From positions 172,112,001 to 172,176,000 of the forward strand of contig OZ024741.1 in the NCBI GenBank assembly GCA_964016885.1: 64,000 nt of DNA, written 5' to 3'. This document shows, in pieces, positions 3,577 through 60,850 of this stretch (position 1 is the first letter of the stretch; each line of letters opens with the position of its first letter). The stretch comes from Eledone cirrhosa (taxonomy: Eukaryota). Both the position numbers and the translations under genes were made by a program. Below the pieces are notes generated by a model. That model worked only from the letters and a program-made list of their open reading frames with translations, had not been told where the DNA came from and did no database searches.

Positions 3577-4443
3577 CACTACACACAAATGATATATATA
3601 CATATTATATTCAATCATACCCGTACTTGTGTTTCATTTTCCAGTCTAACATTTCAATTCACTTTTTTCTTTCTCCTTTCACTTTCTCACACAACGTGTC
3701 AAAATTCTTAGCGTCACCTCGCCCCCACACAATATTTCCCACATTCTCTGTTGTCACTATATATATCTACAATCTTATAGATTCCCAAGGCAATATTCAA
3801 TTTCATCGTGATCTTTTTTTTCTTGTATCTTTACCTTCGCTTTTCTTTTTCGGAAGACTGATAAACTCTGCCTGTATTAGCCGACTAATTGAAAATATAT
3901 GCTGAAATTCCATACAGAATTATTAGACGATATGGCTTAACCCTTAAATATATATATACATGTATATCTATATATAAACATATTCTCACAGATGTTCACA
4001 CATTCGCATTCACACGCGCAAATACACACACACACGCACCCACACTCTCATACACCCACACACACACACACATATATATATAAACATATGTATATATCTA
4101 TATGCATCCATATATATATGCCTCTCACTTTCTCTCTCTCTCTCTCTCTCTCTCTCTCTCTCTCTCTCTCTCTCTCTCTCTCCCTCTCTCTCTCTCTCTC
4201 ACTCTCTCTCTGTATATATATATATATATATATATATATATATATATATATATATATATAAAAATATATATATGTGTATATATATATATATAAATATATA
4301 TATATATATGTATATATATATATATATAAATATATATATATATATATATATATATATATACGTTATTCCGGGTTGAATCGGAGGTAACCACAGTAAGTAA
4401 GGTACTCAATACATAGCAGAGTATAACAGTTTTAATATAGATG

Positions 4444-4494
4444 AGATTCTACAGGACTAGAACTGTTTCATTCATTTGAAATCATCAGGAATCT
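4444..4494 (-). ncRNA. Type I hammerhead ribozyme
   Basis: Reverse complement of the motif at 5085-5135. Confidence 0.85.
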
Positions 4495-5084
4495 GGGTAT
4501 CAAAAAATAAATATGGTATTTATAGGTCTCTACAAGTGGTAGGAGAGGGTGGGGAGTGGGATGGGTGCAGGTCATTGGTTGATAGAAAAGGGAATTCATT
4601 AAAAGCTAATTCTACAAAGCTATAGTTTATTTTTATTTTTATTTTTATTTATTTATGTTTTTAGAGTAACAAGGGCAGACAGAATTCTATAAACAGGTTC
4701 CGGATGGCCTACCATTCCTTGTCAATAAGTTTCTCTTAAGCTAACAGATGTCTATAAAATAAGTGGGGGGGTCAGTCATAGTCGATAGAATTAAAGAAAA
4801 GGGAGATTCTTTAAAAGCTAAAGTCATTAAGGTTCTACTAAGTGACAAAGGTCTAGAGAATTCTGCAGACAGATTCAAAATACTGAGTGCATATCTTACT
4901 ATTATCTTGTTACTCTAAAAACATAAATAAATAAAAATAAAAATAAAAATAAACTATAGCTTTGTAGAATTAGCTTTTAATGAATTCCCTTTTATATCAA
5001 CCAATGACCTGCACCCATCCCACTCCCCACCCTCTCCTACCACTTGTAGAGACCTATAAATACCATATTTATTTTTTGATACCC

Positions 5085-5135
5085 AGATTCCTGATGATTT
5101 CAAATGAATGAAACAGTTCTAGTCCTGTAGAATCT
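5085..5135 (+). ncRNA. Type I hammerhead ribozyme
   Basis: AGATTC-CTGATGA-tttcaaatgaat-GAAA-CAG ttctagtc CTG-TA-GAATCT: 6-bp stem I, GUA cleavage triplet. Confidence 0.88.
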
Positions 5136-5251
5136 CATCTATATTAAAACTATATATATATATATATATATATATATATATATATATATATATATATATA
5201 TATATATATATATATATACTACGTATACATATATATATACTTACTTAAATG

Positions 5252-5707
5252 TAAGTATGTATGTATACGTACATACATATATGTATACAGATGTACAGTA
5301 GCATGCATATATATATACATATATACATATACATACAGGTACACATATATATATATGTACGTATCAGTTTAGCGAACGTTTATTATAACGCCCGCTTTGT
5401 CCGTTTGTAAACAAGCGAACAGCCTGATTTATGCCATACGGTGTTAAGGCAACCACGTCACCTTTTTGTTCAACACTGACACAGGAACGATGTACTAGTT
5501 TCAAGCCTTAACACCGTATGGCATAAATCAGGCTGTTCGCTTGTTTACAAACGGACAAAGCGGGCGTTATAATAAACGTTCGCTAAACTGATACGTACAT
5601 ATATATATGTGTACCTGTATGTATATGTATATATGTATATATATATATATATGCATGCTACTGTACGTCTGTATACATATATGTATGTACGTATACATAC
5701 ATACTTA
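5252..5707. repeat. Near-perfect long palindrome (arms 5252-5450 and 5505-5707)
   Basis: Arms are reverse complements, including the TA/TG-rich outer parts; 54-nt loop. Confidence 0.92.
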
Positions 5708-5756
5708 TATATATATATATATTTATATATATATAAATAAAAATAGAGAAATTAAT

Positions 5757-5943
5757 TGTTTCTACTTTTTGGCACAAGGCCAGCAAATACCCAGTACATT
5801 ACTGGTACTTCATTTTATCGACTCCGTAAGGATGAAAGGCAAAGTTAACCTCGGCGGGATTTGAACTCAGATCATAAAGGGACATAACTATGCTAGAAAG
5901 CATAGCGTCTGACCCTCTACCGATACTGCCAATTCACCACCCC
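5757..5943 (-). mobile_element. tRNA-derived SINE with 17-bp target-site duplication
   Basis: A box TGGCAGTATCGG, B box GAGTTCAAATCC, core TTTGCCTTTCATCCTTACGG.GTCGATAAAAT; AAAATAGAGAAATTAAT at 5740-5756 and 6023-6039. Confidence 0.9.
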
Positions 5944-6228
5944 TTAGCTCGAGAGAGCCGGATTCGGCGTTCAATGGATCACCAGCGAGCTATGTCCACA
6001 GATAGTATGGATCACTAGTATGAAAATAGAGAAATTAATGTGAGCAAGAAGCCAACAGTATTTCATTATATATAAGTGACTATAACGTCAAGATGGAAAA
6101 TATTTAACGTAAGATGTGGGAAAATAATTCAAACTCAATGTGAAATCCAGGGAAAAAACCAATAGTGTCTTAACTCAGAATAAAATTAAGGTTAAATACT
6201 TATCCTTCAATTTGGAAAAACTACAAAT

Positions 6229-59145: not shown

Positions 59146-59258
59146 TTATATAAACAACTCTTTGCTGAATCTGTGTTAGTGTCACTGCTACCACACACAC
59201 ACACACACACACACACACACACACACACACATAAATATATATGTATGTATATATATCT

Positions 59259-59337
59259 ATTAAAATAACAGATTAAAGTTTAAGCAAAGAATCGCTGCTT
59301 TCACCCTTAACGGGATCTTCAAATTTATTATTATTAC
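59259..59337. mobile_element. Split, inverted mini-insertion of the 22989 family
   Basis: 59259-59320 equals 23100-23162; 59316-59337 is the reverse complement of 22989-23010. Confidence 0.85.
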
Positions 59338-59366
59338 TATGTATATATATATATATATATATATAG

Positions 59367-59885
59367 TTATACTTGGAGAGGGTAATATTGTTGTAATATT
59401 GCCAATAATAATTTTTTTGCTTTTGACACAAGGCTAGCAATTATCCCGGTGTACCACTGGTACTTTATTTTATCGACCCCGTAAGGATGAAAGGCAAAGT
59501 TAACTTCGGCGGGATTTGAACTCAGACCATAAAGGGCCATAACTCTTTGGTGCTAAGCATGGCGGCCGACCCTTCTACACTCACTGTTTGGTTGGTTTTC
59601 GCTTCTGTATCATTTATATCTCCATAGTTAATTTATTTGGCAATCAATGTTTATCATTGATTGACCAGCGGTTAAATATACAGATATAAATATATATATA
59701 TATATATAGTCTATCAAAGTTCTTTCGTTGCACATCTGTAATATCATCAGTGGTACTATTATGTTCCCTCCTACTGTATTGTAAAGTCTACCCCATTTTA
59801 ATTTTATTTATTTATTCTTCTCTCTGTCTCTGCGCATGCGTTTGCGTGTGTGTATAATCGTTGGTGTGTGTGTTCGCGTTTGAGT
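59367..59885 (-). mobile_element. pLTR related to 16015-16265, with a hammerhead (about 59712-59755) and an inserted tRNA-SINE (about 59408-59577, minus strand)
   Basis: TACCA-CTGATGA...GAAA-GAAC-TT-TGATA; starts GTTATACTT.G.AGGGT like 16018. Confidence 0.65.
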
Positions 59886-59906
59886 GTATGTATATATATA
59901 TATATA

Positions 59907-60309
59907 ACCAAAAGTTAAACAAGGTTCATTGATTAATCGATGAATATAGTTTTACAATAGATTAGAAGCACTCAACTGTAAAAGTTTTCTGGAGTTATTA
60001 GTATTAATTCAAAATATTATATATATATATATATATATATATATTAATTCAAAATATTAATAAATATAGACATTCATGTAATCAAATATATTATATTATA
60101 TATATTTCGAAGGCACTGTGCTGTTTCCTCAGTACGTCCTCATCAGACTGGAATTGAACCATCAGCACAGTTGAGGGATGTCATACATCAATTTATATAT
60201 TTTATCTGATGAGGACGTACTGAGGAAACACCACAGTACATCCGAAATATATATAATAAAATATATTTGATTACATGAATGTCTATATTTATTAATATTT
60301 TGAATTAAT
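59907..60309. mobile_element. Fold-back hammerhead element (arms about 60002/60042-60147 and 60205-60309)
   Basis: Inverted arms with several mismatches; tail on the left. Confidence 0.85.
60195..60266 (+). ncRNA. Type I hammerhead ribozyme
   Basis: ATATATTTTAT-CTGATGA-GGAcGTACTG..CAGTACaTCC-GAAA-TATATA-TA-ATAAAATATAT. Confidence 0.9.
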
Positions 60310-60324
60310 ATATATATATATATT

Positions 60325-60850
60325 TAGAAACACACAGATACATGCGGACACACACATATACATGAATGCATCCGCACCCAACCGTGAGTTAAGGGTGCCA
60401 ACTTCACCGATGTTGCTCAATGAATGACTGGGACAGACCAATCCGGTTGAACCAGACTGAACCAGTATCAGAGTTAAAACTACATTATGAAGAGAGAAGA
60501 AACATTTAGATATAATTAGTAATAAAATGTATCATACCTAAACTGCTCCTAGATTCCTCGACTACGTAGTTTCGTGGCATAAACAAAAACAATACATCAT
60601 AAAGATATAGAGTCCTTGCGAGGTCTGCCGACTTATCAAGAGGATACCTCATTTTACTAGTCTCTTCTTGAGACTAGTAAAATGAGGTATCCTCTTGATA
60701 AGTCGGCAGACCTCGCAAGGACTCTATATCTTTATGATGTATTGTTTTTGTTTATGCCACGAAACTACGTAGTCGAGGAATCTAGGAGCAGTTTAGGTAT
60801 GATACATTTTATTACTAATTATATCTAAATGTTTCTTCTCTCTTCATAAT
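60325..60850. mobile_element. Perfect fold-back element (181-bp arms 60484-60664 and 60670-60850) with a variant hammerhead
   Basis: 5-nt loop TTCTT; TCCTC-TTGATAA...GAAA-CTACGTAG-TC-GAGGA at 60690-60779. Confidence 0.9.

Follow-up and report, generated by a model that had tools for sequence, protein, structure and literature searches.

Hammerhead-bearing fold-backs in (TA)n tracts of Eledone cirrhosa as likely shortened, inverted ends of Penelope-like elements, and a tandem family without an open reading frame

Seven fold-back elements carrying type I hammerhead ribozyme motifs, E1 to E7, were analysed in a 64,000-nt stretch of Eledone cirrhosa DNA (hereafter the window; contig OZ024741.1, positions 172,112,001 to 172,176,000, assembly GCA_964016885.1). 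The window is AT-rich and microsatellite-dense and is part of a 3.0-Gb assembly. We consider it very probable that E1 to E6 are the 5'-shortened and 5'-inverted ends of Penelope-like elements (PLEs) that encode an open reading frame (ORF), likely of the Hydra clade, inserted in (TA)n, and that E7 is a 593-nt tandem unit without an ORF that is likely mobilised in trans. A first-pass annotation of the same DNA had described all seven as unrelated, non-coding hairpin insertions forming a class of their own.

Inverted arms were sought by self-blast of the window with simple repeats masked, and all seven inverted-arm elements were recovered at the positions first assigned to them. The arms of different elements did not match one another by blastn. 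A type I hammerhead descriptor returned 15 rows, corresponding to 14 distinct sites in the window, while dinucleotide shuffles (n = 60) gave a mean of 0.22 sites and a maximum of 2. An Rfam scan of the window had no hammerhead family among the matches listed (150 of 262), which were sub-threshold hairpin and microsatellite matches. The seven elements are composed as follows (UTR, untranslated region; LINE, long interspersed nuclear element).

4213-4360: (TA)n flank of E1
4361..4908, minus strand: E1, last 548 nt of a Hydra-type PLE (3' UTR, hammerhead 4444-4494, 68-nt tail 4361-4428)
4906..5151, plus strand: inverted tail-less partner of E1 (TATAAA box 5055; hammerhead 5085-5135, its first base being the 5'-end hot spot of the family)
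20176..21876, minus strand: long arm of E2 (end of a Hydra-type ORF 21850-21876, 1.36-kb 3' UTR, hammerhead 20307-20372, 90-nt tail)
21876..22119, plus strand: inverted tail-less partner of E2 (hammerhead 22013-22078)
22487..22951, no strand assigned: E4 (tail 22487-22581, damaged left arm; right arm from the family hot spot at 22791, hammerhead 22852-22922 on the plus strand; spacer holding a 3' fragment of an RTE LINE, 22689-22776 plus short repeats)
26021..26432, no strand assigned: E3, spacer-less fold-back (hammerheads 26073-26169, minus, and 26214-26310, plus, with a long helix II; 26-nt duplication at the junction; 69-nt tail 26364-26432)
27234..27793, no strand assigned: E5, spacer-less fold-back (arms meeting at the family hot spot 27446; hammerheads 27298-27447, minus, and 27446-27593, plus; 133-nt tail 27661-27793)
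59907..60307, no strand assigned: E6 (97-nt tail, short TA run, left arm 60045-60147, right-arm hammerhead 60195-60266 on the plus strand)
60325..60853, no strand assigned: E7, fold-back of part of the 593-nt ORF-less tandem unit (tail 60325-60480; U3/A8 hammerheads 60555-60644, minus, and 60690-60779, plus)

Outward-reading hammerheads were intact in both arms of E1, E2, E3 and E5. E7 (60325) also has one in each arm, with the core UUGAUAA (U3/A8 instead of C3/G8), whereas E4 (22487) and E6 (59907), which had been credited with two, have an intact hammerhead in the right arm only; their left arms are without the 5' strand of helix I. Each of the seven has a tail on one arm only, as first described, and the lengths found are 68 to ~165 nt (65-160 nt as first given). 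TA flanks had been attributed to every element; on the left of E3 a clean (TA)n is missing. Four of the single motifs on the earlier list (6229, 20002, 26666 and 48904) pass the type I descriptor, and two are degenerate, 23119 having a U4A core and 60968 no helix I of at least 4 bp. The helix III loop is palindromic in E2, E4, E5, E6 and E7 and is not so in E1 and E3. Helix II of the E3, E5 and 26666 hammerheads forms a hairpin of 60-115 nt, which is long for PLE hammerheads.

The fold-backs are real. Near-perfect palindromes beside microsatellites are what an amplification or assembly fold-back would leave, yet the outer ends are fixed in each family, the tail is one-sided and the arms differ by substitutions and indels. 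Furthermore, raw restriction site-associated DNA (RAD) reads from three other samples, aligned to one E7 unit, had TA joined at each of the two end positions and also showed the tandem joint and strand-switch joints. These joints (one read start each, the window's own junction not among them) argue against an assembly artefact at the family level, and we regard such an artefact as negligible.

To trace the arms beyond the window they were used as genome queries, and the 30 best-scoring loci per query were kept; the 162-3331 first-look candidates per query are not copy numbers. Reverse transcriptase (RT) and GIY-YIG domains were recognised by motif and tblastn. In six of the seven families, longer copies run upstream into an RT/GIY-YIG ORF on the same strand as the hammerhead. 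The E5 parent L221 is a complete unit with an 830-aa stop-to-stop frame, arranged pLTR-tail-ORF-UTR-pLTR-tail (pLTR, pseudo-long terminal repeat), and L222 and L224 likewise carry the ORF; the E1 parents L034 (651-aa frame) and L031 do so too. For E2, the ORF ended at a consistent place in five of seven long loci (L225-L228 and L231), L229 being without an ORF and L230 having pieces of a PLE ORF with no established connection to the arm. The E2 copy in the window was called non-coding, and in this it was misjudged: 21850-21876 (minus strand) encodes KYKYKFKM and a stop, the last eight codons of the PLE ORF, and the ORF of L227 ends in the same residues. A distal-UTR query for E3 found the ORF directly upstream in 27 of 30 loci, 13 of which have the E3 arm downstream; in other copies the parent ORF lies ~1.7-1.9 kb upstream of the arm. 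ORF remnants were enclosed by the arms in both long E4 loci (L232, L233) and lay between the arms in two of three long E6 loci (L234, L235). Unit lengths were 4.8 kb (L034) and 6.2 kb (L221), with partial-tandem pLTRs in both. Copies carry nested lengths of upstream sequence, which gives a picture of 5' truncation, and since the families continue into RT/GIY-YIG ORFs, the E1 to E6 elements of the window are read as truncation products of autonomous PLEs.

The 3' UTRs of the E1 and E5 parents (L034 1766-3675, L031 and L221) contain long internal TA/TG-rich arrays that vary among copies. PLEs may thus spread the microsatellites that they target.

Among E1, E5 and E2 the parent proteins share 39-44% identity, so that the description of the elements as unrelated applies to the DNA of their arms and not to these proteins. 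E1, E5 and the C-terminal half of E2 have the motifs RW(R), DKT, CxCX5C and CxxC..E..N..CxH and lack CCHH, as compared with the motifs in Craig et al. 2021 (PMC8557442). The E3 linker reads CNCRVGEEC, and the E4 and E6 proteins are tied to the Hydra type by tblastn similarity only. Judged by motifs in three aligned proteins, the six parents are likely members of the Hydra clade. That clade shares with them a single ORF for RT and C-terminal GIY-YIG, DKT, the CxCX5C linker, CxxC/CxH, the absence of CCHH, a canonical hammerhead and (TA)n (PMC8557442). There are differences: RWR here and RWK there; units of 4.8 and 6.2 kb with 3' UTRs of 1.4-3 kb, compared with 'generally <3 kb', a tendency and no strict criterion; tails of 68-165 nt against 30-40 nt; and at least six families in one 64-kb window. 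Hydra-1_Obim from Octopus bimaculoides is listed as a Hydra family (PMC8557442, File S1/S2), and the likeness of its proteins was judged by eye from partial text.

The 3' ends of other copies (200 ends, the window's own loci removed, both arms of one insertion being counted for some loci) fell at two fixed positions per family. (TA)5+ followed directly after 185 of the 200, compared with 5-21% of background positions, in agreement with the first suggestion that Penelope RT/GIY-YIG proteins and (TA)n targets are involved; target-site duplications are not readable here because of the (TA)n. An inverted partner lay within 1.5 kb in 76 cases, with a tail on exactly one arm in 61, on both in 13 (10 of them E7 tandems) and on neither in 2. 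Both end positions are downstream of the predicted cleavage site (+21 and +89 in E1, ~+53 and ~+133 in E3), which means that the RNA template carried a hammerhead either uncleaved or re-ligated. Copies vary in their junctions and partner lengths, an identical junction pair being seen once (L273/L274), and the hairpin is therefore rebuilt at each insertion. A miniature inverted-repeat transposable element (MITE) or other fold-back DNA transposon was ruled out by the asymmetric ends and variable junctions.

Such rebuilding also bears on the proposal that all seven are a separate ORF-less class that propagates as hairpins through a rod-like RNA containing the ribozyme. Short copies are abundant, several are of recurrent length and E7 has no ORF, as that proposal would have it. 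It does not account for six families that run into ORFs or for hairpins whose junctions and partner lengths vary by copy. Folding prediction pointed the same way. Read-through RNA of whole elements was predicted to fold back with 74-87% of bases paired, so that the rod itself would form, but the helix I pair probability was 0.000 in all six whole elements folded (E2 left out); with helix I sequestered in this manner, read-through RNA would bury the ribozyme and not present it. In isolated arms the helix I probability was 0.96 for E4, 0.84 for E7 and 0.51 for E6, and only 0.002-0.08 for E1, E3 and E5, which makes hammerhead folding as a monomer doubtful for the latter three. The separate hairpin class is largely refuted, E7 alone of the seven families being ORF-less as it supposed, and we hold it to be very improbable.

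The reading of E1 to E6 as PLE ends suggests a likely course of insertion. The RT/GIY-YIG protein would nick both strands of a (TA)n tract, and one cDNA would be primed from each target strand. The two cDNAs would begin at two fixed sites downstream of an uncleaved hammerhead, in keeping with the bimodal 3' ends observed, and the distance between the sites would be the tail. Both would extend towards the 5' end of the RNA and then be joined head to head, which would explain why the arms read outward and why one alone has a tail. A start in the first pLTR would soon reach the RNA 5' end and yield spacer-less hairpins such as E5, and a start in the downstream pLTR would stop at variable points of the 3' UTR or ORF (E1, E2). 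For E7, copying would pass many units before ending at any point, which a circular or long tandem template would permit. In an in vitro system, a PLE protein cleaved both target strands and extended them from two start sites within the RNA, with no requirement for hammerhead cleavage (Frangieh et al. 2024, PMC11167929). That element, PAc/Poseidon_Ac, thus shares the two internal RT start sites that delimit the tail and the uncleaved hammerhead in the template; it belongs to a different clade, and head-to-head joining and cap copying are not treated in the accessible part of that paper.

Where the cDNAs stop was examined from the 5' ends. For E1 these were counted with a short query starting at the hammerhead, ends inside the query being excluded by design: 14 of 28 other copies start within 1 nt of one A, and one more starts in the next 108 nt. 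Single-base peaks were also found in E4 (14 of 39 copies), E5 (8 of 31) and E6 (8 of 30), with queries biased to the region. All five hot spots (E1, E3, E4, E5 and E6) read pyrimidine/C immediately before an initial A, and TATAAA lies ~30 nt upstream in E1 and E6. A G replaced the native C at 11 of the 14 E1 ends, compared with 36 of 173 control junctions (p = 2e-5). Copying of a cap is known from LINE biology to leave an extra G, and the hot-spot starts suggest that the RT reached the capped 5' end of a Pol II transcript. Nothing was found on an extra G or cap copying in PLEs by a literature search that covered few subscription papers. The pLTR of Adineta vaga Penelope combines a TATA with an Inr-like TCACT (PMC3846280), and E6 has TCACT at its hot spot.

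An RT stalling at the helix I base of the hammerhead, or a splice acceptor, might account for a hot spot in place of a capped start. The hot spot does coincide with the 5' edge of helix I in E1 and E5; in D. virilis an intron runs up to the 5' end of helix I (PMC4209133), and the E1 hot spot has a pyrimidine tract and CAG. Against this stand the hot spots of E3, E4 and E6, which lie ~27, 61 and 57 nt upstream of the hammerhead, the pyrimidine/C-to-A step common to all five sites and the TATAAA upstream in E1 and E6. The letters upstream of the hot spot vary, so there is no constant exon, and E1 copies retain the AG. We consider a stall or splice site unlikely, though a stall is still in contention for E1 and E5.

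A different origin of the inverted arm, by self-priming on an antisense template, was proposed by Arkhipova et al. (2013, PMC3846280) from junction palindromes in Adineta vaga Penelope, which shares the head-to-head inverted pLTRs and the optional tail on one arm; those authors favour it, unlike the two-cDNA reading here. Some junctions in our set are indeed self-complementary (E5). In two E1 fold-backs (L273 and L283), however, the two arms stop at one and the same base, a non-native G is present on each and filler separates them, and in E7 the lengths and phases of the arms are independent. Twin priming on one RNA is a related possibility; here both arms copy the same 3' segment, which LINE-1 twin priming does not do. 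Either route seems to us distinctly improbable.

E7 differs from the other families. Its 593-nt unit (GC 43%) occurs in head-to-tail arrays and has a 134-codon stop-to-stop frame, and no PLE protein match was found inside E7 insertions in 60 loci. Six of nine arrays examined read TA, tail, units, a junction at any phase, inverted units, arm end and TA; one of the remainder was two-armed with a short partner and two were single-armed. In L361, 2.7 and 6.4 units show no difference among them, and unit divergence was 0.22% within the same arm, 0.39% between opposite arms and 0.89% between insertions. The 71 E7 5' ends were scattered round the unit with mild clumps at ~270-295 and 488-502 and no single-base peak. 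The U3/A8 core was present in 59 of 60 copies; this compensatory pair is natural and active elsewhere (PMC3088659). Taken from sequence, the scattered ends and tandem arrays suggest a circular template, a homogeneous long tandem transcript being possible, and E7 is likely mobilised in trans by a PLE RT/GIY-YIG protein.

Two loci contain further E7 sequence. At L358 (850-1900) a copy is joined directly to a broken Hydra-type ORF in the endonuclease region, a one-off that may be either a template switch or an adjacent insertion. At L158 (1055-1125) a 70-nt piece around the arm end has many reads and mixed loose ends on both sides, and could mark a related family or a missing partner.

Circular templates were proposed for PLEs by Cervera and de la Pena (PMC4209133), retrozyme circular RNAs have been shown (Cervera & de la Pena 2020, PMC7229834), and retrozymes have been argued to be non-autonomous PLE derivatives (Li et al. 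2026, bioRxiv 10.64898/2026.07.22.740005). Metazoan non-LTR (long terminal repeat) retrozymes share with E7 the ORF-less tandem units, one type I hammerhead per unit and the GC of 43%, and a PLE origin and circular templates were proposed for them (PMC7229834; 10.64898/2026.07.22.740005). At 593 nt, E7 lies outside their unit size of 150-450 nt. It differs further in its U3/A8 core and in the PLE signature of tail, inverted arm and TA on each array, and its circularity is suggested by sequence; the word 'tail' is absent from the main text of 10.64898/2026.07.22.740005 as available. A literature search on hammerhead retrozymes in octopus, covering few subscription papers, found no such element, and the available part of the O. 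vulgaris repeat annotation (PMC13282606) makes no mention of hammerheads.

We tentatively propose, at somewhat less than even confidence, that these families record the PLE reaction. Each fold-back would be two independent sense-templated cDNAs from opposite (TA)n strands; in autonomous families a linear capped Pol II RNA would give 'strong-stop' hairpins with the cap copied as an extra G; and E7 would be a PLE-dependent retrozyme with a U3/A8 hammerhead, copied round a circular RNA from both strands into mirror-image concatemers.

Several observations weigh against these interpretations, beyond the double counting of arms and the two-tailed pairs given above. No intact parent was found for E2, E3, E4 or E6 among the loci examined, and the ORF link is weaker for E4 and E6 because their parents are internally rearranged. 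Compared with L221, the L034 ORF is shortened by an in-frame deletion in its interior; Pfam gave no domain for this ORF, and keeping the 30 best-scoring loci per query favours young copies. The link to an ORF-bearing PLE, sought for every family, failed for E7: no PLE sharing its sequence was found by blastn among the retrieved loci and 30 more. The E3 hot spot is loose, spread over ~6 nt, and E2 had no clear one among the copies examined. The extra G was significant only in E1 (8 of 23 in other families, p = 0.18), where the partner arm could have supplied the template for 3 of the 11. The loci examined included no empty target site, so some of the (TA)n could have arisen in the course of insertion.

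The window also holds further PLE sequence and one additional hammerhead fold-back.

23970..25040, plus strand: RT/GIY-YIG ORF remnant of another PLE family (second copy 289-1164, minus strand; G3-variant hammerhead 25241-25283)
48788..49044, no strand assigned: additional small fold-back (57-nt arms, one hammerhead 48904-48942, minus strand)
62371..63719, minus strand: RT and GIY-YIG frames of a further PLE

The last of these probably has the imperfect 60968 motif in its 3' end. Pfam analysis of four proteins gave a weak RVT_1 match, below cut-off, in one (the 23970..25040 remnant). The regions 18572-18698 and 18730-18897 hold, in TA, an older sequence related (84%) to the tail and arm end of E1, beside sequence related (79%) to the 26480-26647 piece in front of hammerhead 26666. 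An RTE-like LINE at 28573-31743 (plus strand) has an intact 1056-aa stop-to-stop ORF; its 3' end lies inside E4 (22689-22776, 98.9%), through either template-switch capture or later insertion. A palindrome without a hammerhead in a TA/CA-rich tract (5254-5705), with matches in 15 of the retrieved loci, is possibly another fold-back family. More inverted repeats occur at 51982-52084, 52178-52568, 58852-59078, 34715-34779, 38393-38452 and 47523-47636; the 51982 repeat has outward-facing CUGAUGA-like cores, and a full hammerhead did not pass there. LINE ORF remnants at 40282-43223, 45676-46915 and 35745-37515 are, from their motifs, presumably L1/Tx1-like and other LINEs. A ~185-nt repeat resembling a short interspersed nuclear element is present at 5753, 10349, 16674, 18345, 33634, 47249, 54166 and 59403.

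An inverted partner truncated at its 5' end, a tail on one side, hammerheads and a preference for (TA)n have all been stated for PLEs (PMC8557442), so that the plan in the first-pass annotation is the known PLE insertion plan and by itself matters little, inverted hammerhead PLE stubs in (TA)n being published, including an octopus Hydra family. E1 to E6 are new families of a published kind, E7 is a variant, and the 5'-end signature is a testable clue. How PLEs build tandem and inverted insertions, and the role of the hammerhead, are called open in PMC8557442. The Eledone genome offers several young families with mapped RT starts and candidate transcription starts, together with a small ORF-less substrate, E7, so that two cDNAs can be tested against self-priming, and a circular against a linear template. 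Annotators are warned that such stubs mimic MITEs and microRNA hairpins. If the proposed reaction is true, retrozymes would be tied to PLE enzymes by their insertion signature, and antisense self-priming would be argued against.

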